A stretch of DNA of 64,000 nt from a bacterium (lineage in GTDB: Bacteria > Zixibacteria > MSB-5A5 > WJJR01). The stretch is taken from assembly GCA_021813505.1 (NCBI GenBank), contig JAKAKI010000040.1, positions 56,559 through 120,558 of the forward strand, given 5' to 3'. Position numbers and translations under genes: made by a program. Below the pieces are notes generated by a model, which was not told the DNA's origin, did no database searches, and was given only the letters and a program-made list of their open reading frames with translations. Shown here one piece after another: positions 3,228 to 17,119 of the stretch; positions within the stretch are counted from its first letter, which is position 1, and the number at the start of each line of letters is the position of its first letter.

Positions 3228-5558
3228 ATGATCGACGAGTGGCATGTAGCTGGACGCAAATCCGGATTGCCGGATAACCAGCAGCGTATTGCTGTCCGGG
3301 GTAAACGGCACCCGGCCCTGCTCCTGGCAGTGCTCGTTGCGCTCGGTGTTTGCCTTGCTGATCATGTTACGGCAGGCCTGACTCTCTGGCTTTGTACTTC
3401 CCTTGTCGCTCTGGCTGGAGTCGTTGCCTTACTGTTGACCCGACGTTGGCGAGGCTTGCTTGTTCTCGCCGGTGTCATGCTTGGCATTGCGCTGGGGGCG
3501 TGGCGCATGGCCGTCGAACTCCACGGACGACCTTCATTGCCGTTAGTCGACCTCATCGAGACACGCGAGCTGGTTGAAGTGTACGGGCGCCTGACCGGTA
3601 TCCCTCGGCAAAGGCTGAGTGGGTGGAGCGCACCCATTGAAGTAATGACGGTGCGCACCGATGCCGGGATTGTGCCCATCAAGTCCGCCGCGCTTCTCAG
3701 CATGCACAAATCACTTTCGGAGTTTCGCCACGGAGACCAGGTTCATTTCACCGGACGGTTCGAGGCACCGTTTGTCCGTCGCAATCCCGGAGGGTTCGAC
3801 TACGCCGCTCATCTGTTTCGACAGGGCATTGATGCCGTCGTCCGGCCGGTTGATTCTCTCGTTGATCGATACGGACTGAGCTCCACACCATCGCTGATGA
3901 ATATCGTCGAGCCGGTTCGCGCCTGGCTTCGCAATGTGTTCGGTGTGCACATGCCAAAAACAGCGCGCGCCCTGATCCTCGGCTTTCTCCTGGGCGACAC
4001 GGATCAGTTGTCTCCGGGCATTGTGGCGGCGTTCCGGGATTCCGGCACGCTTCATTTGCTGGCGGTTTCCGGGGCGAATGTCTGGCTTCTGGTTGGACTG
4101 GTGGCATGGCCGATGCGATTGCTGCGCATCCCGCGCTGGCCGCGATCGTTGATCATCCTGTCGGTCGTGACAGCCTTCTGTGTTTTGACTCGTAACGAAC
4201 CATCGGTGGTGCGCGCCTCGCTCATGGTGGGATTCTTCATTATTGGCCGCCTGATCTACCGGCCCATAACCTTGCTGAACGCCGTCGGCGCTTCGGCGCT
4301 CGTAATACTCATTGCCTCGCCATCCCAATTATTCCGTCCCGGGTTTCAACTGTCCTATGCGGCAGTCATCGGGATCGCGGTGGTCGCGCGGCAGATAACG
4401 CCATGGACGCAGTCATTGAAATCCCGATGGCTTCGGTCCGGCGTCCTGATCGTTTCTTCCTCGGTTGCGGCCACATTGGCAACCGCTCCCATTGTGGCCT
4501 GGCACTTCGGCAGCGTTTCCTTGGTATCGCTATTCGCGAATCTCGCGATGATCCCACTGGCGGCGGCCAGCCTGTACCTCTGCCTGGCGTTGGCGTTCTT
4601 GTCGGTGCTTTCGGTAGCGGCAGCCGGTTGGATCGCGTACCCGGCAGCCCGATTGCTTGATCTTTCTGCTTACCTGGCCACAACGTTTTCGAAGTTGCCA
4701 GGCGCCCATATTCCCTGGCCCAATCCCTCACCCATCTGGATCATCCACCTTTACGGTGCCGGAATTCTGGCGCTGAACTGGAGGCATCGTTACCGCTGGG
4801 TTCGTCCGGTAGCGTGGTATTCCGTAGGACTGACACTCCTAGTCTCGGCGAGTAGGACACTTCACGAAGACCCGCCGTCAATCACGCTGGCGTACCTGGA
4901 CACCGGCAACACGCGTGTCGCGGCTTGCCTTCATCCTAATGGGAATCTGACCTGGCTGGCCGACGACCCCGGCATTGACGACCAACTGGAGCAATGGGTG
5001 ACTCTGCCATTTGTCCGAACGTTATCGGTCCCTGTGCGGCACGCGGAAACTCATTCATGGCGGCGAATGGATTCTGTGGTCGGCCCCACTGTCAGATCAG
5101 CGCCCGCGCAAGGGCGGTTTCCGGCGCCGGGTTGGCGCAGATATGTCTCCGACCTCGACTCCGCCACAGATTCCCGCAGAGTCTGGTGCGATCGCTTCAC
5201 CTGGCAGGGTGACACGGTCATGTGCCTGCGGGACTATCCCACGTCGCCGCCTGGCGCGGCGTGGATCGACTCCACACTCGGCTCCGGGTGGACGATCGTG
5301 TTGCCGGCAAGAATCCCGGACCGGCTGGTCCGGCGGATCCTTGATCGTCATGCCCCCCGTCGGGTCGCGTTCTTCGGCCATGCCGGGGTTTGGCGCGACC
5401 CGGATCAGGTTCTGGAGTTGTGGCGCATGCGCTATCCAGTCATTGAGTTCTATTCCACCGCCGTTCATGGCTGTATGCAAATCCGCTTAGGCCGGGCGGG
5501 CGCCCCGATTCTGCCCACGATGGCGGAATCTCGCTGGGTCCCCTCTCCGGCGGGTTAA
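3228..5558 (+). CDS. comEC: DNA internalization competence protein ComEC/Rec2
   Basis: 776 aa. N-terminal DUF4131-like membrane region. Competence-domain motif 'LSPGIVAAFRDSGTLHLLAVSGANVWLLVG'. C-terminal metallo-beta-lactamase-like region lacking an obvious HxHxDH motif. Confidence 0.75.
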   Translation: MIDEWHVAGRKSGLPDNQQRIAVRGKRHPALLLAVLVALGVCLADHVTAGLTLWLCTSLVALAGVVALLLTRRWRGLLVLAGVMLGIALGAWRMAVELHGRPSLPLVDLIETRELVEVYGRLTGIPRQRLSGWSAPIEVMTVRTDAGIVPIKSAALLSMHKSLSEFRHGDQVHFTGRFEAPFVRRNPGGFDYAAHLFRQGIDAVVRPVDSLVDRYGLSSTPSLMNIVEPVRAWLRNVFGVHMPKTARALILGFLLGDTDQLSPGIVAAFRDSGTLHLLAVSGANVWLLVGLVAWPMRLLRIPRWPRSLIILSVVTAFCVLTRNEPSVVRASLMVGFFIIGRLIYRPITLLNAVGASALVILIASPSQLFRPGFQLSYAAVIGIAVVARQITPWTQSLKSRWLRSGVLIVSSSVAATLATAPIVAWHFGSVSLVSLFANLAMIPLAAASLYLCLALAFLSVLSVAAAGWIAYPAARLLDLSAYLATTFSKLPGAHIPWPNPSPIWIIHLYGAGILALNWRHRYRWVRPVAWYSVGLTLLVSASRTLHEDPPSITLAYLDTGNTRVAACLHPNGNLTWLADDPGIDDQLEQWVTLPFVRTLSVPVRHAETHSWRRMDSVVGPTVRSAPAQGRFPAPGWRRYVSDLDSATDSRRVWCDRFTWQGDTVMCLRDYPTSPPGAAWIDSTLGSGWTIVLPARIPDRLVRRILDRHAPRRVAFFGHAGVWRDPDQVLELWRMRYPVIEFYSTAVHGCMQIRLGRAGAPILPTMAESRWVPSPAG

Positions 5559-5623: not shown

Positions 5624-6796
5624 ATGGGATTTACCGGCAATCTGAAAACTCTCTCGTTCGGAGACATTCTCCAGCTCATATCCACGGGGAAGAAGACTGG
5701 AGTTCTCCAGATTCTGCGGTCGAATTTCGCGAAGAAGATTTACTTCCGCGGCGGGAATATTATCGCCGCCGCGTCGCTGCCTTCGACGATCGAAGAGCGG
5801 CTGGGGCAGGTGCTGGCGCGCAAGGGACTCTTGACGGCGGAAGATCTGGACAAGGCGCTGAAGAGACACAAATCCTCCGGCAAACGGCTTGGCCAGGTGC
5901 TCATCGAAAACGGGATGCTGGACCGATCCGTCGTCCTCGACGCGTTACGCGCTCAGGTGGAAGAGGTCGTTTACAGCGTCTTCTCCTGGTCGGAGGCGGA
6001 ATTCCGGTTCCTGGACGATGAGATGCCGGATCAGGGGCAGATTCTGGTTGATCTCAACACCATGAACGTCATGATGGAAGGCGCCCGGCGATTCGATGAA
6101 TACGCCGAGGTCGCCCACGATCTTCCATCCGGTGAAACTGTCCTGCGCCTGTGCCCGTCGCCGCATCTGAATCAGCCGAGCATCGTCCTCACCGCCGACG
6201 ACGTGGAGATTCTGGCGGCGGTCAATGGCGAACGAAATCTGCTGGAGATTCTCGCCACGGCGCCAAACGGTGAATACAGTGCCTCGAAATCACTCCACAA
6301 ACTCGTGCAATCGAAACTGGTCGAGGCCTGTCCCGATGCTGCGGAGCGCGACAAGCGGCGCGGAGAGGAAGAGCAAGTCTACGATTTGATCTACCGCCTG
6401 TATTCGCACGCGCTTCAGGCGCTGCGCAAGTCTCTGGTCGAATACCTCGGCATGCTGGGTGAACGGTTGTTCGCGGCGGTGCCGGAGGGCTGGGATTCGG
6501 AGACCGCCGGTCTCCTGAGTGTTTTGACCGGCGGGAGCGACGGCGCGGAGGAAGCATTTCGCAAGGAGACTTCCCGCATTCCCGAGACGGTGCGTCTGCA
6601 TCGGGTTCTGGCGCTGGCGGGATCATTGTTGTCCGACAAAGTGCGGGTGATGACCGATCGAGTGGGACCCAACACCACCGGACACACAATCAATGGAATA
6701 CACAAGGACCTGACCTTCCTGCTGGCGCAGAAGCGCCAGCTGGCCGACAAGTATGATGTCGGCAGGGAGTTCCGTCAGGCATTGCGAGGAGCGTGA
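5624..6796 (+). CDS. DUF4388-type (PATAN-like) domain protein
   Basis: N-terminal 'GNLKTLSFGDILQLISTGKKTGVLQI...IYFRGGNIIAA' is the DUF4388 signature. Start taken at internal 'MGFTGNL' (5624). C-terminal 250 aa have no recognisable family. Confidence 0.5.
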   Translation: MGFTGNLKTLSFGDILQLISTGKKTGVLQILRSNFAKKIYFRGGNIIAAASLPSTIEERLGQVLARKGLLTAEDLDKALKRHKSSGKRLGQVLIENGMLDRSVVLDALRAQVEEVVYSVFSWSEAEFRFLDDEMPDQGQILVDLNTMNVMMEGARRFDEYAEVAHDLPSGETVLRLCPSPHLNQPSIVLTADDVEILAAVNGERNLLEILATAPNGEYSASKSLHKLVQSKLVEACPDAAERDKRRGEEEQVYDLIYRLYSHALQALRKSLVEYLGMLGERLFAAVPEGWDSETAGLLSVLTGGSDGAEEAFRKETSRIPETVRLHRVLALAGSLLSDKVRVMTDRVGPNTTGHTINGIHKDLTFLLAQKRQLADKYDVGREFRQALRGA

Positions 6797-6800
6797 GACG

Positions 6801-7193
6801 ATGATCGCGAGCTTCATTGTATCGATATCGCATGTCCTCCGCGCCGGCGCGGGGACGCTAATCCAGCAGTCGTCGGGTGCGCAAAGCGGCCAGTCCTCCG
6901 TTTCCGGGTTTTCCATCGGATCGCTGATTCTGTGCATACTAATGGTGCTGGTGCTGGCGGCGTGCATCATGAGTGCTTTCAAGATCTATGTTGCCGTCCG
7001 GGGTGGGAAGATTGCCCAGGGCTGGTTTCTGTTTGTCGTTGGATTTGGGCTGCTTGGCCTGGCTCAGGTGATACTGCTCGCGTCTCAGATGACGATCCTG
7101 CCGGTGTCGACGATGCTGGCGGATGCCATGCGCGCCGTGGCCCTGATTGTGATTTTGATCGGCGCCGGCCGTCTGAGAAGACTCCTGACATAG
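6801..7193 (+). CDS. Small integral membrane protein (hypothetical)
   Basis: ATG 6801 lies 5 nt after the previous stop, with an 'aggag' 9 nt upstream. ~3 TM helices. No family recognised. Confidence 0.4.
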   Translation: MIASFIVSISHVLRAGAGTLIQQSSGAQSGQSSVSGFSIGSLILCILMVLVLAACIMSAFKIYVAVRGGKIAQGWFLFVVGFGLLGLAQVILLASQMTILPVSTMLADAMRAVALIVILIGAGRLRRLLT

Positions 7194-7392: not shown

Positions 7393-8283
7393 ATGATCAA
7401 CGTCGCGGAATTAGACGAGCGCATCGAACGTTGCCTGGCCATTCTGGCTGATAATCCGCATTCCCAGGTTTTTGCGGCACTGGCCGAGGCATACCGGCGC
7501 CGTGGAGACTTTGGCCGGGCATTCTCGGTGTGCAAGAGCGGGCTGAAGCATCACCCGGATTATAGTCCGGCCTATGTTGTTCTGGCCAAGCTCTATTTGC
7601 ACCAGAAGATGCTGCCGGATGCATTGACTTCTCTGCAGCGTGCGGTTGAGCTCGATGGCACGACTCGCGTCACCGATGTGCTCGAAGCGGAGATTCAACT
7701 CGCGCTGGGAGACATCAAGGCGACGCAGGTTGTGATCGATCGCTTGCGCATGACGGATCCGGGGAATGTCTCGTTGCCGGAACTGGTGGAACAACTGAAG
7801 CTGCTGCGGTCCGGCCCAATTGTCCCTCCGGCGAATTCTTCGCCCCCGGATGATTGGTCCCAATCATCGCCGCGCGCAGCCTCAGTGTCACGACCCGAGC
7901 CGGAATGCACGAATTGGCCGGAGTGGGCGGTCGCCACCGGCAATCTTCCGGGAGTCGAGTTTGCGTTCGTTGCCGGAGCAAATGGCCGCGTTAGCGCACA
8001 ATCCCCCGAGTCCGAGGCGACTCCCTCCAAAGCCGAAATCATTCTGGATTCGTTGCGGGAGATCGAAGGCCGCTGGCAGGCCGACGTTTGGGGAACGGTC
8101 GGTGAACTTCGCATCGAGAGCACACACGGAGACGTGTGGATCGGACGGCTCAAGGACGTGATCGTCGGATTCGTAGGGTCAGAGCAATTGAAGTACGGTG
8201 CGGCGCGCCAGCGCTGTCTTGATTTGGCGGCGCGGGTCCTGGATGCGCAGATCGCGACAGGCAGTACTGAGGGGCGTGTGTGA
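7393..8283 (+). CDS. TPR-repeat protein
   Basis: N-terminal TPR-like helical repeats ('AEAYRRRGDFGRAFSVCKSGLKHHPDYSPAYVVLAKLYLHQKM...'). Pro/Ser-rich C-terminal half. Confidence 0.6.
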   Translation: MINVAELDERIERCLAILADNPHSQVFAALAEAYRRRGDFGRAFSVCKSGLKHHPDYSPAYVVLAKLYLHQKMLPDALTSLQRAVELDGTTRVTDVLEAEIQLALGDIKATQVVIDRLRMTDPGNVSLPELVEQLKLLRSGPIVPPANSSPPDDWSQSSPRAASVSRPEPECTNWPEWAVATGNLPGVEFAFVAGANGRVSAQSPESEATPSKAEIILDSLREIEGRWQADVWGTVGELRIESTHGDVWIGRLKDVIVGFVGSEQLKYGAARQRCLDLAARVLDAQIATGSTEGRV

Positions 8284-8310: not shown

Positions 8311-9270
8311 ATGGGCGCATATGACAGGGACACAACGGCCGGAACTGTGAGCACGGTCGTCCGACAGACAATTCTTCTCACGGGCGCCCTGTCCGTGTTA
8401 CCGCTGTTGCCGTATCCCAACACTTTTGGGATGGGGATGCTGGGGGCCGGCCCCTGGCTGGGAGCCGTGGAAACTCTCCTGTATCTGGGGATTCTCTCCC
8501 TTCTGGCCCGCTGGCTCACCGCGCCGCAACTGATTGTCGGCGCCGTGCTGACGTTTGCCTATCGCGCAGCGCTTGGCGCCGCATCCGGATCATTGCTTGC
8601 GGCCAGCAACAATGTGCCCTGGGGGGAGTCGGTCAGTCTCACTCTGTGGTCTTATCCCATCGCGGTCTTTCCGCATATTCTGGCAGCACCACTGGTCGTG
8701 CGTTCCATTCTGAAAGCGTTTTGGGATGAAGAACGCCCGTATTCGCGCCGTCGTGCCATGCCGGTGACGGCGTCGACTGTGTCCCGCCGCGCCGACGGAC
8801 TGGCGCGTACTGAGCCCACTCCCCGTATTGTGCAGCATGCCGCGACGGCACGCGCTGTCACTCATAACATGCCGGCCCTTGACAACGCCATGAGCTACAT
8901 CGGCGAGTACGACGGTGTGCGGATGTGCTGGCTGGTGGACCATGAAGGATTGCCACTGGCTTCCTGGCAGCGGCAGGAGTACACGGGCAGTGTCGAGTTT
9001 TGGGCGCCGATTTCGGTTGAGATTGTGGAATTCAACCGGCGCTGTTTGTCGGCGGGTGGCGATGTCCGGCCACTGCGCGTCGAGGTACGGACCGATGCGG
9101 GACGAATCATTCTGGAAACCGCCGGGGAGTTCTGGCTGGGTGTATTGACCGATCGCGAAACGGATGAGCTCATCGGTCTGCGTCTTTCCCAATCACGCGA
9201 AATGATCTTAAAACATCTGCAGGAGCGGTGTGCGCAGTACTCGGGATTGCAGGAGGCTCGGTATGTATGA
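8311..9270 (+). CDS. Membrane-anchored Roadblock/LC7-domain protein
   Basis: RBS 'ggaaggga' before ATG 8311. N-terminal ~140 aa with 4 predicted TM helices. C-terminal ~110 aa ('SYIGEYDGVRMCWLVDHEGLPLASW...VEIVEFNRRCL...') resemble a Roadblock/LC7 fold. Stop overlaps the next gene start. Confidence 0.5.
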   Translation: MGAYDRDTTAGTVSTVVRQTILLTGALSVLPLLPYPNTFGMGMLGAGPWLGAVETLLYLGILSLLARWLTAPQLIVGAVLTFAYRAALGAASGSLLAASNNVPWGESVSLTLWSYPIAVFPHILAAPLVVRSILKAFWDEERPYSRRRAMPVTASTVSRRADGLARTEPTPRIVQHAATARAVTHNMPALDNAMSYIGEYDGVRMCWLVDHEGLPLASWQRQEYTGSVEFWAPISVEIVEFNRRCLSAGGDVRPLRVEVRTDAGRIILETAGEFWLGVLTDRETDELIGLRLSQSREMILKHLQERCAQYSGLQEARYV

Positions 9271-9601
9271 AGTATTAACCCAGTTGAACAAGACAAATGG
9301 CGTTACCGGCAGCATGGTGGTCGGCAACGATGGCATCGTGATCGCCGCAGACCTCAACAGCCAGATCGAGGACGACACGGTCGGTGCAATGGCTTCGTCC
9401 ATTGTGGCGACTGTCCGGCGGTCGATGACCAGCCTCGGAAATGGTGAGTTCTCCCAGATTACGGTCGAGGCGGACAAGCGCAAGATGTTCCTCGCCGATG
9501 CGGGCGTCGGAACCCTGGTGGTGACGACGGAGCCGCGCGTGAATATCGGGCTGGTGAGGCTCGAGATTCGCAACGCGATCAACGAATTGCGCAACGCCTG
9601 A
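9263..9601 (+). CDS. Roadblock/LC7-domain protein (MglB paralogue, MglC-like)
   Basis: RBS 'aggagg' 9251-9256, then ATG 9263. 112 aa: 'MYEVLTQLNKTNGVTGSMVVGNDGIVIAADL...TVEADKRKMFLADAGVGTLVVTT' is a Roadblock/LC7 profile. Confidence 0.65.
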   Translation: MYEVLTQLNKTNGVTGSMVVGNDGIVIAADLNSQIEDDTVGAMASSIVATVRRSMTSLGNGEFSQITVEADKRKMFLADAGVGTLVVTTEPRVNIGLVRLEIRNAINELRNA

Positions 9602-9648: not shown

Positions 9649-10605
9649 ATGGTAACCATCAATTACGCGTTTCGGGAGATTAGTTGTAAGATCGTCTACT
9701 ATGGCCCGGGTCTGTCCGGCAAGACGACCAATCTCCAATACGTGCATGATCGTGTCCCGTCCAAGTCCCGGGGAGATCTGATCTCCCTGGCCACCGAGGC
9801 GGACCGGACACTCTTTTTCGATTTCCTGCCGATTCACGTCGGTGACATCGCCGGGTTCGCGACCAAATTCCAGTTGTACACCGTGCCGGGCCAGGTCTTC
9901 TACAACGCCACGCGGAAGCTGGTGCTTCGCGGCGTCGATGGGATCGTGTTTGTCGCCGATTCGCAGACGGCGAAGATGGACGAGAACATCGAGTCACTGA
10001 CCAATATGTTCGAAAATCTTCGCGAGAACGGTATTGATCCGGCGGATATCCCGATCGTGCTGCAATACAACAAGCGTGATTTGCCGGACATCGTTTCCAT
10101 CGAAGAACTCCAGAAACAGCTGAATCCCTCCGGGTGGCCGTACTCCGAGGCATCAGCGGTGAGTGGCATCGGCGTCTTCGACACCCTCAAGCGAATCACC
10201 AAAATGGTGCTGGAACAGACCAAACGGCGGACGGCCGTCACGCCTGACGGTTTGCCGCAGATGGGTGAGGGAGTGCAGCCGTCTCCTGTCCACGAGCCGC
10301 ACGCCGCTTCCAGCATTTTGGAATCGAGTGGAAAGATCGCCCGGCCCCAAGCGCCTGCCGTTGCGGAAAGCTGGCCGTCGCCCAGCGATGCGCCGGTGGC
10401 AGTCGCTGCCGAAGAACCTGCGGTTACCGTTGCCGCGCCGGCCTCCAGAGAATCCGTTTCATCGGAGCGCCTGGGCGGGGCACCTGAATCGAATTCGTCA
10501 TCCTCGCGTGGCCGGATTGTCATGGCTGCGCAGCCTAGTTTGCGTATCCGAACCCGGCAGCGCTCGTTCTGGGGGCGCGTGCTGGATTGGTTGTCCGGTC
10601 GTTAG
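9649..10605 (+). CDS. mglA: Ras-like small GTPase MglA with ~125-aa low-complexity C-terminal extension
   Basis: N-terminal 195 aa are near-colinear with Myxococcus MglA ('INYAFREISCKIVYYGPGLSGKTTNLQYV...TLFFDFLP...YTVPGQVFYNATRKL...VFVADSQ...QYNKRDLP'). They are followed by a Pro/Ala/Ser-rich tail ending 'RQRSFWGRVLDWLSGR'. Confidence 0.85.
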   Translation: MVTINYAFREISCKIVYYGPGLSGKTTNLQYVHDRVPSKSRGDLISLATEADRTLFFDFLPIHVGDIAGFATKFQLYTVPGQVFYNATRKLVLRGVDGIVFVADSQTAKMDENIESLTNMFENLRENGIDPADIPIVLQYNKRDLPDIVSIEELQKQLNPSGWPYSEASAVSGIGVFDTLKRITKMVLEQTKRRTAVTPDGLPQMGEGVQPSPVHEPHAASSILESSGKIARPQAPAVAESWPSPSDAPVAVAAEEPAVTVAAPASRESVSSERLGGAPESNSSSSRGRIVMAAQPSLRIRTRQRSFWGRVLDWLSGR

Positions 10606-10615
10606 GAGGTGACCG

Positions 10616-11095
10616 ATGGCGTCGCATTCATTTGTACTATTCGAAGAGCAGATCAATCAGATCAACGCAGCCTTGCTGCGGATGATCAAGAAGGCAGAGG
10701 CGAAGTGTGCTCTCCTGGTGGACAAGGATGGCCATCTGCTCACCCGACAGGGGTTCACTCAAACCCTGGATACAACTGCGCTGGCGGCGCTGCTGGCTGG
10801 GAGTTTTGCCTCTACCAAGGAGATCGCCCGTCTGGTGGGCGAGCCGGAGTTCTCGGTGCTATTCCACCAGGGGAAAAAGGACCACATCCACATTTCGCTG
10901 GTGGGTGAGCGGTGCATTCTCGCCGTCGTGTTCGATGATCGCACCACCATTGGAATGGTGCGCCTATACGCCAAGGAAACCGGCGACCGACTCAAGGAGA
11001 TACTGACAGTCACAGGGAATCGTGAGGAGCCCGCGTTAGATCCCGATTTCACCCGGTCCGCCGGGTCGAAGATCGACGCGGTCTTCAAAGAGTAG
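10616..11095 (+). CDS. mglB: MglB (Roadblock/LC7 GTPase-activating protein of MglA)
   Basis: 159 aa with strong similarity to M. xanthus MglB ('LLVDKDGHLLTRQGFTQTLDTTALAALLAGSFAS...EFSVLFHQGKKDHIHISLVGERCILAVVFDDRTTIGMVRLYAKE'). Confidence 0.85.
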   Translation: MASHSFVLFEEQINQINAALLRMIKKAEAKCALLVDKDGHLLTRQGFTQTLDTTALAALLAGSFASTKEIARLVGEPEFSVLFHQGKKDHIHISLVGERCILAVVFDDRTTIGMVRLYAKETGDRLKEILTVTGNREEPALDPDFTRSAGSKIDAVFKE

Positions 11096-11165: not shown

Positions 11166-12857
11166 ATGTCCCAAGAACTCGGCCATATGCTGGTCAAGGC
11201 TGGGAAGATCACGCCTGAGCAACTGGCTCAGGCGCTCGAACGGCAGAAATCCAGCAGTGAGAAATTCGCCGACATCCTCGTCCGCATGGGTGCGGTGGCC
11301 GATGAGGACGAGCTTACTCATTTCATCGGCCGCCAGCTCAACATCGGGGCTCTGCGCTTGTCCGATGTTGAACTCAACCCCGAGATCGTCAAGGTCATTC
11401 CGCTCGATATTGCCCGGCGTTTCAATGTCATCGCCATTTCCAAACTGAACAAGACGCTGGTGGTTGCCATCAGTGATCCGCACAACATCTATGTGCTGGA
11501 TGCACTCAAGTTCATCACGGGATGCACGATCCAGCCCGTCATTTCACCGGAACGGGCGATCGGACGCGCGATTGACCAATACTACCGCGACAGCGGCGGT
11601 ATCGGTGATCTGCTCAAGGGACTCGAGGATGATGGCGGGCTTCAGGTCATCGAAACGCAGGACGCGCTGGACGAATCCGATCTGCGTTCACAGGTGCAGG
11701 ATAAGCCCTTGGTCAAGCTCGTCGATGGCATCATCATGGAAGCCATCCGGCGGGGTGCCTCGGACATTCACATCGAGTCGTACGAAAAGCGCGTGCGCGT
11801 CCGTTACCGCATCGACGGCGTGCTGCATGAAACCGAGCCACTGCCGTTCAAATATCGGGCCGCCATCGTTTCGCGCGTCAAGATCATGGCCGAACTCGAC
11901 ATTTCGGAACGCCGTCTGCCGCAGGACGGACGCATCAAGGTCAAAGTCGGCGCGCGGGCGGTTGACCTTCGCGTATCGGTGCTGCCCACGATTTTCGGCG
12001 AAAAGGTCGTGATGCGAATTCTCGACCCGCAGTCCCTGATGGCTGACCTGACACAACTGGGATTCCCGGAGCTCGCGCTCAAGAACTTCCAGCATGCCAT
12101 TTCCCTTCCCTACGGGATGATCCTCGTCACGGGACCCACAGGCTCCGGCAAGACGACCACACTGTACTCGGCGCTGAAGACTCTGAACGATCCTGAGGTC
12201 AATATCCTGACCGCCGAGGACCCGGTGGAGTTCAATTTTGACGGAATCAATCAGGTGCTGGTCCGGAGCGACATCGGCCTGACCTTCGCGGCATCGCTGC
12301 GCTCCTTCTTGCGACAAGACCCCGACATCGTGATGGTCGGCGAGATTCGAGATGGAGAAACCGCGGAGATCGCGATCCGCGCGGCACTGACGGGGCACCT
12401 TGTGTTTTCCACGCTTCACACGAATGATGCGCCCTCCTCGATCAACCGTCTGATCGATATGGGCATTCCGCCATACCTGGTCGCCTCGGCCACGAAGCTG
12501 ATCATGGCCCAGCGAATGACCCGAAAGATCTGCCCGCATTGCCGCAAGGAAATCGAGCTTACGCCCGAGCATCTGGCGGCTCTGGGGATCGCCCCGGAAG
12601 AGGCAAAAGAGCTTCATGTCTTTGAAGGAGCGGGTTGCGCGGAGTGCAATCACACCGGACTGTCCGGGCGAACGGGTATTTTCGAGGTGATGCCGATTTC
12701 GCCAATTGTTGAGCGGATGGTCCTCGACTCCGCATCGGTGGATGAACTTCGGCAGCAGGCTGTCAAGGAAGGGATGCTCACCCTGCGTATGGCGGCGGTG
12801 GGGAAGATGAAGCTGGGACTCATTCCGATTGAGCAGGTTCTGGCAGAGTCCGCCTGA
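11166..12857 (+). CDS. pilB: Type IV pilus assembly ATPase PilB (GspE family)
   Basis: N-terminal T2SS_E_N-like domain. Walker A 'GPTGSGKTTTLY'. Tetracysteine motif 'CPHCRKE...CAEC'. Confidence 0.9.
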   Translation: MSQELGHMLVKAGKITPEQLAQALERQKSSSEKFADILVRMGAVADEDELTHFIGRQLNIGALRLSDVELNPEIVKVIPLDIARRFNVIAISKLNKTLVVAISDPHNIYVLDALKFITGCTIQPVISPERAIGRAIDQYYRDSGGIGDLLKGLEDDGGLQVIETQDALDESDLRSQVQDKPLVKLVDGIIMEAIRRGASDIHIESYEKRVRVRYRIDGVLHETEPLPFKYRAAIVSRVKIMAELDISERRLPQDGRIKVKVGARAVDLRVSVLPTIFGEKVVMRILDPQSLMADLTQLGFPELALKNFQHAISLPYGMILVTGPTGSGKTTTLYSALKTLNDPEVNILTAEDPVEFNFDGINQVLVRSDIGLTFAASLRSFLRQDPDIVMVGEIRDGETAEIAIRAALTGHLVFSTLHTNDAPSSINRLIDMGIPPYLVASATKLIMAQRMTRKICPHCRKEIELTPEHLAALGIAPEEAKELHVFEGAGCAECNHTGLSGRTGIFEVMPISPIVERMVLDSASVDELRQQAVKEGMLTLRMAAVGKMKLGLIPIEQVLAESA

Positions 12858-12960: not shown

Positions 12961-14061
12961 ATGGTGACGTTAAGAGAATTGCTGGAATTGGCGCATCAGC
13001 GCAAAGCATCCGATCTGCACCTGACAGTGGGATCTCCCCCACAGTTGCGCATCGATGGCCGGCTGGTTCGTACCGAAATGGAGCCGCTGACGGCCGAGCA
13101 GACCAAGAAGCTGGCGTACAGCATCATGAACGAAAAGCAGCGGAAGAAATTCGAGGAATCCTGGGAGCTGGACCTCTCCTTTGGAATCGAGAATCTCAGC
13201 CGTTTTCGCTGCAACGTATTCGTCCAGCGCGGCAATGTGGCCGTGTCGATCCGGCAGATTCCGTTCAAAATCAGCACCTTCGAAGAGCTGGGCCTGCCCC
13301 GCGTGGTCAGCGAACTGGCCAACCTGCCGCGGGGACTCGTGCTCGTCACCGGACCGACCGGATCGGGCAAATCGACGACGCTGGCGGCGCTGATCGACAA
13401 GATCAACCGCGAACGCTATTGCCACATCATCACCGTCGAGGACCCGATCGAATATCTGCACCGGCACCACTGTTCGATCGTCAACCAGCGCGAGGTCTAC
13501 TCGGATACGACGTCGTTTTCTTCGGCGTTGAAGTATGCGCTGCGCGAAGACCCCGACGTCGTGCTGGTGGGCGAAATGCGCGATCTGGAGACGGTCGAAT
13601 CCGCCCTGCGGATTTCCGAAACGGGCCACCTGGCGTTTGCCACGTTGCACACGAATTCCTGCGCGGAGTCCATCAACCGCATCATTGACGTGTTTCCGGT
13701 CAATCAGCAGGAACAGATTCGCGTGACGCTGTCATTCGTGCTTCAGGCGGTCGTCTCGCAACAGCTGATTCCGCGCGTCGGCGGCGGCCGTGTGCTGGCC
13801 CTTGAGGTCATGATTTGCACGCCGGCGATTAGGGCGGTCATTCGTGACGACAAGATTCATCAGATATACAGTTTGATCCAGGCGGGGCAGAAGTTCGGCA
13901 TGCGCACGATGAATCAGTCGCTGGCGGAATTGTACCTGGGGCGGAAGCTGACGATGGGCGACGCGGTTGCCCGGTCGAGCAATCCGCAGGAAATCAATGA
14001 TATGATCCAGCGCAGCCAGGTGCTGGCCGGGACTCGCGACCACGCAACAGTAGGAGGTTGA
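12961..14061 (+). CDS. pilT: Twitching-motility retraction ATPase PilT
   Basis: Start at internal ATG 12961 (the ORF has a spurious N-extension). 'GPTGSGKSTTLAALID', 'AFATLHTNSCAESINRI'. Typical PilT length (366 aa). Confidence 0.9.
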   Translation: MVTLRELLELAHQRKASDLHLTVGSPPQLRIDGRLVRTEMEPLTAEQTKKLAYSIMNEKQRKKFEESWELDLSFGIENLSRFRCNVFVQRGNVAVSIRQIPFKISTFEELGLPRVVSELANLPRGLVLVTGPTGSGKSTTLAALIDKINRERYCHIITVEDPIEYLHRHHCSIVNQREVYSDTTSFSSALKYALREDPDVVLVGEMRDLETVESALRISETGHLAFATLHTNSCAESINRIIDVFPVNQQEQIRVTLSFVLQAVVSQQLIPRVGGGRVLALEVMICTPAIRAVIRDDKIHQIYSLIQAGQKFGMRTMNQSLAELYLGRKLTMGDAVARSSNPQEINDMIQRSQVLAGTRDHATVGG

Positions 14062-14062
14062 T

Positions 14063-15262
14063 GTGCCTCTGTTCGAATACAAAGGGAAGACACTTGCCGG
14101 CACCGCGGTGGCGGGCGAACTCCGCGCCAAGAGCCGGGCGGATCTCGAACGCCTGTTGCGCCGCAAGAAGATCATGATCTCGAACGTCAGCAAGAAGCCG
14201 TCGCAGCTCAAATTCAAGCTGGGAACCGGCATCAAGAAGATCGAGATCTCGCGTTTCACGCGGCAGTTCGCCACAATGATCGGGGCAGGTCTGCCGATGG
14301 TGCAGTGCCTGGACATCTTGTCCAAGCAGATGGAGTCCGCCGAACTGCGGCGCATTGTCGGGCAGGTTAAAGAGTCCGTCTCGAGCGGCTCGACCTTGGC
14401 CGAGGGACTCTCCAAGCACAAGAAGATTTTCGACGACCTGTACGTCAATATGGTCGAGGCCGGTGAGATTGGCGGTGCCCTGGACACGATCTTAGTCAGG
14501 CTGGCCAATTATCGTGAAAAGGCCGATGCCCTCATCCGCAAAGTGCGCGGGGCTCTCGTCTATCCGACCGTCATCGTGGTGGTGGCACTGGCCGTCACGT
14601 TCATTATGCTAACGTGGATTGTGCCGGTGTTCGCGAAGATGTTCTCGGGCCTCGGTGCGGAATTGCCGGCACCGACGCAGATCGTGCTCGGTATCTCCGA
14701 ATTCCTCCGTCAAAACGTCGGGAAGATCCTCCTGTCCTTCATTGCACTGGGTGTCCTCTTCCGGATGATGTTGCGAACCGACAAAGGACGGCTGAACTTT
14801 GACCGGTTTATGCTGAAGGCTCCATTGATCGGTACGCTGGTACGCAAGAGCGCGATCTCCCGCTTTACCCGCACGCTGGGAACGTTGATTTCATCGGGCG
14901 TTTCGATTCTTGACGCCCTGGAGATTACGGCCAAGACGGCGGGCAATCGTGTGATCCATGATGCCATCCGCCGATCAGTGCTGGCGATTGCCGAAGGTGA
15001 TACGATTACCGGACCTCTGGTCCAGACCGGCGTATTTCCGCCGATGGTCACGCAGATGATCTCGGTCGGCGAAAAGACCGGCGGGCTGGACGATATGCTT
15101 TCCAAAATTGCGGACTTCTATGACGAAGAGGTCGACGCTGCCGTCAGTGCGCTGACATCAATCATTGAGCCGGTCATCATCGTGTTCATGGGCGTGGTGA
15201 TTGGAGGCATTCTGATCGCCATGTATCTGCCGATGTTCGACATCATCGGGAAGATCAAGTAA
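14063..15262 (+). CDS. pilC: Type IV pilus inner-membrane platform protein PilC (GspF family)
   Basis: GTG start 2 nt after the pilT stop, with 'aggagg' RBS at 14053-58. Two GspF repeats. 399 aa. Confidence 0.9.
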   Translation: MPLFEYKGKTLAGTAVAGELRAKSRADLERLLRRKKIMISNVSKKPSQLKFKLGTGIKKIEISRFTRQFATMIGAGLPMVQCLDILSKQMESAELRRIVGQVKESVSSGSTLAEGLSKHKKIFDDLYVNMVEAGEIGGALDTILVRLANYREKADALIRKVRGALVYPTVIVVVALAVTFIMLTWIVPVFAKMFSGLGAELPAPTQIVLGISEFLRQNVGKILLSFIALGVLFRMMLRTDKGRLNFDRFMLKAPLIGTLVRKSAISRFTRTLGTLISSGVSILDALEITAKTAGNRVIHDAIRRSVLAIAEGDTITGPLVQTGVFPPMVTQMISVGEKTGGLDDMLSKIADFYDEEVDAAVSALTSIIEPVIIVFMGVVIGGILIAMYLPMFDIIGKIK

Positions 15263-15346
15263 TCAGTTGACGCAAACGTGACCGGCGCCCCCAGGGGCGC
15301 CGGTCATTCCCCAGGTTGCCTGAGAGCCGGGCCCGGAAATCCTCCC

Positions 15347-17119
15347 ATGTTTGTCTACAGCCGGCGCCATTCCGCAGTTGCTCTGCGGCCGTCCTGGGTG
15401 GTTAGCACGCGCCTGGTGGCCTATGCCGTGACGACAGCGCTGGCGTGGCCGCTGCTTCGAACCACGCCGTATCTCACCAGTTCGCTGATCATCTACACCA
15501 CGGCCACGATCACGACCGTCCTGGCGGTGCTCATGGGACGGCGGCACGCGGCGTCTCCGCTTGCCTCGGTCCTGAGGGCCGCACAGATTGCCTGCGAACT
15601 GGTTGTCGTCTCGCTGATCGTCCTTCACACCGGCGGGACACGGTCGCCGTCGTTCTACCTGTATCTGACCACCATCATCTCCGCGGCGGTGTCGTATCGC
15701 CTGATCGGAACGCTCTTTGTGGCATCGGCGGCGACGGCGGCCTACTGCGTCGTGGTATGGATCGACTCCGGCCACGGGCTCTCGATCTTTCAGCCCAATC
15801 AGTGGCTTGGGACTGTCCGGCAGCTGTCGGATGAGGACTTCTTCACGGCATTCGTACGACTGTGCATTTTCTACCTCTGCGCGTTTGTCGGAGGGTACTT
15901 GGCGGAGCGGCTGTCTTCGAACGATGAAGTGCTGGCACACACGACGGAGGCGCTTAAAGAGGCCAAGCTCGAAACCGGTGATATTCTGAAGCACCTGAAT
16001 TCCGGGATCTTTACGGTCGATCTGGAAGGCCGCATCGTCTATTTCAACCGGGCGGCGGAGGAAATTCTCAGACTTCCGGGACGGCGCGTGCGCGGACGCC
16101 ACTTCCATGAGGCCTTTGAGGGACGATACCCTGAGCTGGTCAGCCGGCTCGAGACGGTGCTGCACTCCCAGAAGATGGATACGCGCACCGAGCTGACGAT
16201 TGATCACGCCGATGGCACGAAGACGCCGATCGGTCTATCGACGTCGGTGCTTGCCGATGCCGAGGGGAAGGCCCGGGGCGTGATCGGAATCTTCCAGGAT
16301 TTGACCGAGCCCAAGATGCTGGAAGAGAAGTTGCGGGCAAAAGACCGCCTGGCAGCGGTGGGCGAACTCTCGGCGGCGATCGCGCATGAAATCCGCAATC
16401 CTCTGGCGGCCATCTCAGGATCCGTTGAGGTTCTCCGCGACGAATTGAAACTCGAAGACGACAACCGGCGGCTTTTGAACTTGATTGTCAAGGAATCCGA
16501 TCGGCTCAACAAGATCCTGACGGACTTCCTGATGTACGCGCGCATTCGTCCGACCGTCGCCGGGCGGGTCAGCATTGCGCCGGTGATCGATGACGTGCTC
16601 GAGATCACGCGGCGGCATTTCCAGGGGCGGTCGGTCCAGTTGCGAACACGGCAGGCCGACCAATCATTGGCGGTGCAGGCCGATGCCGACCATCTGAAAC
16701 AGATCTTGATCAACCTGGTCTTCAACGCCGTCGAGGCGGGCGAGAGTCCCGACAGCGCCGTGACCGTGATTGTCGAAATCCCGCACGTGTTGCCCTTTGA
16801 CCCAAGGTTTGATGCCGACCGGAACAACCCGGCCCAATGGGTTTCCATCGCGGTCCACGACAATGGCGGCGGCATACCCGTTGAGGTCCGCCACCGTCTC
16901 TTCGAACCGTTTGTGTCCTCCAAGCCATCCGGAACCGGTCTGGGACTGGCCATAACCTCCCGGCTCGTCGAGAACATCGGTGGCGCAATCACGGTGGAAA
17001 GCCAGCCCGGACGCGGCACCACGATGGGAGTACTCCTGCCCCGGTGCGCGGCCACTGGCGAGGCTTCGGCATCGGACGAGACTTCCCCGCAGGACCTCGC
17101 GGTCGTGGCTCACAGCTAG
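15347..17119 (+). CDS. pilS: PilS-like sensor histidine kinase (6-TM N-domain, PAS, HisKA, HATPase_c)
   Basis: Start at internal ATG 15347. Six N-terminal TM helices. PAS ('FTVDLEGRIVYFNRAAEEIL'). H-box 'ELSAAIAHEIRNPLAAI'. N/G boxes 'HDNGGGIP...GTGLGLAI'. Adjacent to pilC. Confidence 0.75.
   Translation: MFVYSRRHSAVALRPSWVVSTRLVAYAVTTALAWPLLRTTPYLTSSLIIYTTATITTVLAVLMGRRHAASPLASVLRAAQIACELVVVSLIVLHTGGTRSPSFYLYLTTIISAAVSYRLIGTLFVASAATAAYCVVVWIDSGHGLSIFQPNQWLGTVRQLSDEDFFTAFVRLCIFYLCAFVGGYLAERLSSNDEVLAHTTEALKEAKLETGDILKHLNSGIFTVDLEGRIVYFNRAAEEILRLPGRRVRGRHFHEAFEGRYPELVSRLETVLHSQKMDTRTELTIDHADGTKTPIGLSTSVLADAEGKARGVIGIFQDLTEPKMLEEKLRAKDRLAAVGELSAAIAHEIRNPLAAISGSVEVLRDELKLEDDNRRLLNLIVKESDRLNKILTDFLMYARIRPTVAGRVSIAPVIDDVLEITRRHFQGRSVQLRTRQADQSLAVQADADHLKQILINLVFNAVEAGESPDSAVTVIVEIPHVLPFDPRFDADRNNPAQWVSIAVHDNGGGIPVEVRHRLFEPFVSSKPSGTGLGLAITSRLVENIGGAITVESQPGRGTTMGVLLPRCAATGEASASDETSPQDLAVVAHS

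Follow-up and report, generated by a model that had tools for sequence, protein, structure and literature searches.

Whether a bacterium can fix the regulation of a Ras-like GTPase at its membrane, by building a Roadblock domain into an integral membrane protein, is the question raised by two overlapping genes in a Zixibacteria assembly (GCA_021813505.1). The stretch of contig JAKAKI010000040.1 that was analysed (contig positions 56,559 to 120,558; 64,000 nucleotides, nt) is referred to as the window, and all coordinates are given relative to it. In the bacteria studied so far, MglA and its Roadblock regulators are, to our knowledge, soluble and reach the cell poles via other proteins, and the membrane anchoring of small GTPases and Roadblock scaffolds, as in Ragulator, is regarded as a eukaryotic design. 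The first gene, open reading frame 1 (ORF1; 8311..9270, ATG 8311, TGA 9268–9270), encodes a protein of 319 amino acids (aa) with four predicted transmembrane (TM) helices and a C-terminal Roadblock domain, here termed the 4TM-Roadblock protein; the second, ORF2 (9263..9601), encodes Robl112, a soluble single-domain Roadblock protein of 112 aa. Both lie on the forward strand, as do the neighbouring genes described below from the PATAN gene to pilC. We lean, with modest confidence, towards a membrane-anchored Roadblock platform that docks or regulates a membrane-tethered MglA at the type IV pilus motor.

At the level of the family, sequence profiles and structure models support the ORF1 C-terminal domain (residues ~188–313; 8872..9249) as a divergent Roadblock/LC7 domain, as the initial annotation had proposed. 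ORF1 of the window matches Pfam Robl_LC7 (PF03259) over residues 199–279 (E=7.8e-4, 19.6 bits). A profile built from 14 close homologue clusters and searched exhaustively with HMMER gave 170 representatives at 50% identity, more than 100 of them full length (300–350 aa). Among 79 diverse relatives, 31 match Robl_LC7 on their own at E≤0.01 (best E=2e-7), and no family besides Robl_LC7 recurs among the Pfam matches of this set. The profile of the 79 relatives has 39 matches to PDB sequences, all Roadblock proteins, including dynein LC7 (best, E=6e-8), LAMTOR2 (3e-4) and MglB (0.04). In a word-indexed search, the 79-member alignment brought up little beyond close relatives that were already known. 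The AlphaFold model of ORF1 has a mean predicted local distance difference test (pLDDT) score of 60, rising to ~75–78 in the strands and last helix of the Roadblock domain, with helices at 190–198 and 287–313 and strands at 203–210, 215–224, 256–261, 264–271 and 274–280. Apart from the poorly modelled α2 region (235–252), the predicted fold is thus the alpha-beta-beta-alpha-beta-beta-beta-alpha arrangement of Roadblock proteins and not some other fold. In a Foldseek comparison with PDB, 50 of 50 among the matches listed are Roadblock proteins, among them Asgard Roadblock, a Streptomyces Robl_LC7 protein, LAMTOR2, MglB and MglC, mostly with TM-scores (template modelling scores, normalised to target) of 0.5–0.7. 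Pairwise hhalign comparisons of the ORF1 C-terminal domain with Robl112 (E=0.14) and with MglB (E=0.039), made with shallow, Zixibacteria-only alignments, are non-significant. Some members of the ORF1 family carry the automatic JGI (Joint Genome Institute) annotation ‘predicted regulator of Ras-like GTPase activity (Roadblock/LC7/MglB family)’, indicating that pipelines for annotation do detect the Roadblock portion in part of the family.

A soluble sister subfamily of this domain (132–156 aa, ~30–38% identical to the ORF1 C-terminal domain) was also seen, with one member (NCBI UCE66997.1) from a 3.7-Mb Zixibacteria contig. Many of these proteins end in E..HV or E..YV and may likewise overlap a downstream ATG.

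The ORF1 N-terminal domain (residues ~17–134; 8359..8712), which the initial annotation had likewise taken to span the membrane four times, has the features of such a domain by hydropathy, structure prediction and conservation alike. Hydrophobic segments lie at residues ~17–35, 43–65, 71–99 and 108–134, and AlphaFold places helices at 7–32, 49–65, 71–100 and 104–141. Hydropathy peaks are moderate in ORF1 of the window (Kyte-Doolittle ~1.4–1.6); across the 79 relatives the same four segments are strongly hydrophobic, with mean hydropathy >2.5–3 in most columns. Lys and Arg are enriched at positions 15–18, 67–68 and 131–148, corresponding to the stretch before TM1, the TM2–TM3 loop and the stretch after TM4. 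Bilayer-spanning hydrophobic helices are thus combined with a positive-inside charge pattern, and by the positive-inside rule these clusters make the N- and C-termini cytoplasmic, and with the latter the Roadblock domain (predicted topology N-in/C-in). A predicted cytoplasmic linker rich in Lys/Arg and Pro (residues ~135–187; 8713..8871) connects the two domains; pLDDT is <50 at residues 141–187, and in alignments this segment is poorly conserved and variable in length.

The modest hydropathy peaks of the window protein, together with database matches that span its N- or C-half alone, would fit an annotation artefact, in which misassembly joined two genes into ORF1 or its N-terminus is hydrophobic yet soluble. 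However, the more than 100 full-length representatives come from independent assemblies and align from about residue 15 to 319, the identical protein is found on 16 contigs, and hydropathy across the family is strongly membrane-like, so that an artefact is effectively refuted. A split gene was considered for the relatives matching the N-terminal domain only and was rejected, as these look like fragments or frameshifted calls.

Residues within the helices suggest that the membrane domain may do more than anchor. Glu54 in TM2 (8470–8472) and Arg85 in TM3 (8563–8565) are invariant in 79/79 relatives at an overall identity of ~25%, and Tyr58, Tyr115, Pro127 and the Pro at residue 117 of the window protein show full or almost full conservation. 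Glu54 and Arg85 could form an intramembrane salt bridge or a functional site. The operon also encodes a second, small membrane protein (130 aa, ~three hydrophobic segments; 6801..7193, from the gene call and its translation), which has no match in a Pfam scan. By tblastn it occupies the same position in 11/11 Zixibacteria genome loci that reach it and is found in about half of the distant metagenome loci (24–64% identity across loci); it may be a partner of the 4TM-Roadblock protein in the membrane. The Glu/Arg pair and this second membrane protein together leave room for a membrane domain that acts as a sensor or transducer, relaying a membrane signal via the linker and the Roadblock domain to MglA. 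Candidate signals would include the proton-motive force, the condition of the lipids, and that of PilC or the 130-aa protein. The analogy would be to the Streptomyces conservon, in which CvnA, a membrane kinase, operates with CvnB (Roadblock) and CvnD (GTPase). A plain anchor would need neither four helices nor conservation of mid-helix residues at such divergence, and the existence of a soluble sister subfamily implies that the membrane domain is an added module. On the other hand, the domain matches no family in a Pfam scan of the 79 members and has no similarity to known sensor domains, Glu54 and Arg85 may merely be a structural salt bridge, and a disordered, variable linker is a poor conduit for conformational signalling. 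A sensing role, which would be compatible with an anchored platform for MglA, is in our view a tentative possibility.

Evidence that ORF1 and ORF2 are produced together comes from their arrangement. As the initial annotation stated, the stop of ORF1 and the ATG of a clear Roadblock gene overlap, and the pair lies directly upstream of mglA. The overlap comprises 8 nt (ATGTATGA; 9263–9270), and a GGAGG within the last codons of ORF1 (9252–9256) lies 6 nt 5′ of the ORF2 ATG, together forming a predicted translational coupling signal (9252..9270). Robl112 matches Robl_LC7 as a full domain (residues 3–87 of 112; E=1.4e-15, 57.2 bits, gathering score 23), and mglA starts at 9649, 47 nt 3′ of ORF2. 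Related loci for comparison comprised 10 genome loci, one metagenome contig of the same clade, 55 metagenome loci, identified in a scan with a 20-member sub-alignment of the ORF1 family, and one ~19%-identical member; the ORF1 relatives in the 55 metagenome loci are 25–33% identical. Overlap was counted in 55 distinct loci carrying both genes, one further locus broken by a contig end being left out: the ORF1 stop and ORF2 ATG overlap in 53/55 (by 8 nt in 20 loci, 17 nt in 25, 20 nt in 7 and 26 nt in one), and the remaining two have a 2-nt gap. GGAG is present 5′ of the ORF2 ATG in nearly all of the 55. This arrangement is beyond chance. Overlap and an internal GGAG in 53/55 loci argue for co-production of the two proteins in a fixed ratio, and the retention of the overlap across very deep divergence, although its length varies, argues for selection on the coupling itself. 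At the ORF1 C-terminus, the conserved motif E..YV falls where the Shine-Dalgarno GGAG and the ORF2 ATG lie; as GAG is the core of the Shine-Dalgarno sequence and TAT-GTA contains ATG, conservation of E..YV at least partly reflects a dual-coding constraint.

ORF1 and ORF2 belong to an array of 11 genes (ComEC–PATAN–130-aa membrane protein–TPR/Roadblock–4TM/Roadblock–Robl112–MglA–MglB–PilB–PilT–PilC), whose order is identical across all related loci for as much of the array as each contig covers; most loci are complete. Seven of the 10 genome loci are labelled Candidatus Zixiibacteriota and three Ignavibacteria or Acidobacteriota; the labels on these three close loci are probably erroneous. The distant ORF1 relatives that carry an organism name are also Zixibacteria, including two distant metagenome-assembled genomes. 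Robl112 is still 54–62% identical in the most distant loci.

The gene downstream of the pair (9649..10605, 318 aa) is by its sequence a bona fide mglA. Residues 3–193 of the product align to Myxococcus xanthus MglA (phmmer E=3e-76). MglA-type GTPases are marked by a GxxxxGKT P-loop, TxxGQ in place of DxxGQ and an intrinsic Arg in switch I; the P-loop GPGLSGKT, YTVPGQVFY and ADRTLFFDF (M. xanthus: TDRTLFFDF) are conserved here. The G domain (residues 1–193) is followed by a low-complexity linker of ~110 aa and a C-terminal basic/amphipathic tail (RQRSFWGRVLDWLSGR; 10555–10602), conserved in the clade of the window and taking the form ...KKKRGFFKRLFGIK in distant loci. Across loci the linker varies from ~110 to 270 aa and the tail motif is kept. 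KKKRGFFKRLFGIK is close to the E. coli MinD membrane-targeting sequence, KKGFLKRLFGG, a resemblance that serves as a lead only. The tail may thus tether MglA to the membrane, and a membrane-tethered MglA with such a tail was not found described in the literature searched.

Roadblock dimers are established binding platforms for GTPases of this kind, MglB for MglA and Ragulator for Rag GTPases, with a further example in the conservon, and this established role is the ground for proposing a platform here. ORF1 would be an integral inner-membrane protein in which the flexible 50-aa linker holds the Roadblock domain at the cytoplasmic face, and it would be made together with Robl112 from one mRNA by coupled translation. 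The Roadblock platform, most likely a heterodimer of the 4TM-Roadblock protein and Robl112, would be fixed to the membrane, much as the Ragulator scaffold for Rag GTPases is by its lipid anchor. It would bind MglA, itself recruited to the membrane by a basic amphipathic C-terminal tail, and would determine the site, relative to the pilus base, at which MglA is held or switched. MglB would supply the GTPase-activating protein (GAP) activity, and the TPR-Roadblock protein encoded upstream may link MglA-GTP to PilB, like SgmX, the tetratricopeptide repeat (TPR) protein that couples MglA to PilB in Myxococcus (PMC11580455). The conserved MglA tail and the location of the module inside a pilus motor operon make membrane-fixed regulation of MglA more plausible. 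By analogy with characterised Roadblock systems we infer the heterodimer, its binding to MglA and the direction of regulation.

Both other Roadblock proteins of the operon bear on which pairing is formed. The TPR gene (7393..8283; Pfam TPR, AlphaFold, Foldseek) encodes TPR (residues 1–140), a disordered linker and a Roadblock domain (175–288), for which the AlphaFold model, built with 63 homologues, has a mean pLDDT of 90 and an alpha-beta-beta-alpha-beta-beta-beta-alpha fold. Foldseek matches this domain to LAMTOR2, MglB and Asgard Roadblock (TM-score 0.65–0.77, target-normalised), hhalign matches it to Robl112 (E=0.0016), and 6/63 homologues of the TPR protein match Robl_LC7 (best E=3.8e-8). 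MglB (10616..11095, 159 aa) is canonical, with matches to M. xanthus MglB structures (profile E=1.6e-39), NCBIfam MglB (E=7e-26) and Robl_LC7 (E=2.6e-13). Sequence and structure models therefore give the operon four predicted Roadblock-domain proteins, three of them non-MglB, around one MglA. Given the canonical MglB and the Roadblock domain of the TPR protein, 4TM-Roadblock:Robl112 would be one of several possible pairings.

The 4TM-Roadblock protein might instead homodimerise through its membrane domain, or pair with the Roadblock domain of the TPR protein, leaving Robl112 to act on its own as a homodimeric, MglC-type adaptor between MglB or MglA and other partners, with the gene overlap a matter of operon compaction. 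MglB, MglC and most solved prokaryotic Roadblock proteins are homodimeric (established knowledge; PDB titles), three non-MglB Roadblock domains are available, and the C-terminal domains of the 4TM-Roadblock and TPR proteins both evolve fast, while Robl112 is slow, like MglA and MglB. In a co-evolution (mirror-tree) test, based on partial correlation of distance matrices controlling for PilB/T/C, the 4TM-Roadblock C-terminal domain also correlates more with the TPR C-terminal domain (partial r=0.42) than with Robl112 (0.22). Set against this, overlap and GGAG have been kept at the frequency given above over deep divergence, and Robl112 has no sequence match to MglC: its profile finds Asgard Roadblock 7yh1 (E=3e-9) as the nearest solved relatives and MglB (E=2.6e-4) in PDB, MglC (7ct3) being absent from these matches. 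Identity of Robl112 with MglC was rejected for this lack of a match. We hold such alternative pairing to be somewhat doubtful. Robl112 also has a marginal Pfam match to LAMTOR5 (E=0.054). Two residues of M. xanthus MglB reported to be critical for MglA binding, A64 and G68, align to Ala49 and Arg/Lys53 of Robl112, a correspondence of little weight at ~20% identity.

Several points weigh against a 4TM-Roadblock:Robl112 platform for MglA. The Pfam score of ORF1 in the window is below the gathering score (19.6 against 23 bits), and AlphaFold confidence for ORF1 is moderate (the mean pLDDT of 60 noted above), with values <50 in the helix α2 region. The hydrophobic moment of the MglA tail is not above that of shuffled peptides of the same composition. 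The contacts between proteins are deduced from architecture and genomic context, and the three non-MglB Roadblock domains allow other pairings. The 4TM-Roadblock protein evolves ~2–3x faster than Robl112, MglA and MglB, which is unusual for an obligate partner of the slow Robl112, and the partial correlation between its C-terminal domain and Robl112 was the lowest obtained. As this value derives from 24 genomes and saturated distances, we treat the mirror-tree outcome as uninformative and not as disproof of the pairing.

The remaining genes of the array connect the module to the pilus and to DNA uptake. pilB (11166–12857; Pfam MshEN+T2SSE), pilT (12961–14061; T2SSE) and pilC (14063–15262; T2SSF) follow mglB, and a gene for a PilS-like histidine kinase (15278–17119; 6TM_PilS, PAS, HisKA, HATPase_c) lies 3′ of pilC. 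A scan for promoters and terminators within the array gave no signals above chance. With pilB, pilT and pilC in the same apparent operon and the terminator-like signals between them not above chance, the two Roadblock proteins might act on PilB/PilT or PilC rather than on MglA; a general role of Roadblock proteins in NTPase regulation was put forward by Koonin and Aravind (2000), as cited in PMC4316618. However, the pair adjoins mglA and is separated from pilB by mglA and mglB, and the prokaryotic Roadblock proteins characterised by experiment all work with GTPases of MglA type (established knowledge; PMC4316618, PMC9481161 and PMC10329633), so that a target among the pilus proteins is very unlikely.

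The first regulatory gene of the conserved array (5624..6796, 390 aa; PatA_N in the gene call on an identical contig) encodes a PATAN protein (Pfam DUF4388 E=6e-33) with an MshEN-type cyclic di-GMP (c-di-GMP)-binding motif (NCBIfam NF053729, 56.7 bits, cut-off 38), and its position is conserved in the related loci that reach it. This motif and the MshEN domain of PilB suggest that the module may respond to c-di-GMP. PATAN genes beside mglA/mglB are known (PMC4316618; Wuichet and Sogaard-Andersen 2015; Makarova 2006). A gene for a competence channel of ComEC type (3228..5558) directly precedes the PATAN gene; tblastn finds it at the corresponding position in nearly every locus extending far enough, which links the pilus/MglA operon to DNA uptake genes.

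Comparison with characterised systems shows resemblance to several without identity to any. With the MglA–MglB systems of M. xanthus and Thermus thermophilus the array shares the GTPase family, a true MglB orthologue in the operon, the Roadblock fold of the regulators and a link to type IV pili. However, ORF1 has no match to NCBIfam MglB and ORF2 reaches 15.8 bits where the cut-off is 200, which places neither in that family; Robl112, at 112 aa, is too short for the MglB C-terminal extension, and ORF1 is predicted to be a polytopic membrane protein. The Zixibacteria MglA differs in its long tail with a membrane-targeting-like end, and mglB lies downstream, not upstream, of mglA. M. xanthus MglC, which bridges RomR and MglB, is likewise a Roadblock protein without GAP function that an MglA module has in addition to MglB. 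MglC (7ct3) ranks 29th among the Foldseek matches of ORF1, a match at fold level only, and is absent from the PDB profile matches of the ORF1 family, so that a sequence relationship is not supported; MglC is also soluble and homodimeric, and a RomR/RomX gene is not in the Zixibacteria array.

The likeness to Ragulator–Rag (LAMTOR1-5, RagA/C), as proposed here, lies in several Roadblock domains holding a small GTPase at a membrane, and both ORF1 and the TPR protein have LAMTOR2 among their best matches by structure. The Ragulator anchor, in contrast, is the lipidated non-Roadblock protein LAMTOR1, whereas here four TM helices are fused to the Roadblock domain, and Rag GTPases carry Roadblock domains of their own, which MglA lacks. 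On sequence grounds ORF1 and ORF2 do not qualify as LAMTOR orthologues, and the resemblance appears to be one of design within a shared superfamily.

In the Streptomyces conservon (CvnA membrane kinase, CvnB Roadblock, CvnC, CvnD GTPase) a membrane component, a Roadblock protein and an MglA-family GTPase are also encoded together, and the proteins are reported as a membrane-associated complex (Komatsu 2006, as cited in PMC4316618; PMC13343842). There, however, the membrane component is separate and histidine-kinase-like, whereas in ORF1 it is kinase-free and fused to the Roadblock domain, and the conservon GTPase is from a different MglA group and has no pilus link. In a term search of a 2015 survey (PMC4316618), Response_reg–Robl_LC7 was the only type of Roadblock fusion found. 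The survey excluded GTPases >240 aa and would have dropped the Zixibacteria MglA. Neither a transmembrane-Roadblock fusion, or the ORF1 family itself, nor an array of four Roadblock proteins around one MglA was found described in the literature searched.

A wider reading places a whole small-GTPase cycle at the membrane of the pilus base, run by a Ragulator-like multi-Roadblock assembly, a tail-tethered MglA and a sensing four-helix domain. The assembly would consist of the 4TM-Roadblock:Robl112 heterodimer, the TPR-Roadblock protein and MglB, and the four-helix domain with its invariant Glu/Arg pair would sense a membrane cue, for instance the proton-motive force or the state of PilC, and gate activation of MglA. 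We judge this unlikely as a whole. If true, it would be a prokaryotic counterpart of the eukaryotic membrane-anchored GTPase/Roadblock scaffolds, arisen independently of Asgard archaea.

For a membrane-anchored platform that docks or regulates MglA, the significance is nearer at hand. The Zixibacteria operon encodes a Roadblock domain predicted to be built into a polytopic membrane protein, within a bacterial phylum. The phylum is uncultivated, and we infer the function of ORF1 from its architecture and context. Should the proposed interactions hold, systems of this kind would have escaped earlier surveys that discarded GTPases >240 aa, the range of architectures known for the Roadblock family would be widened, and the operon would offer a compact, reconstitutable model for the organisation of a Ras-like switch by Roadblock platforms at a membrane.

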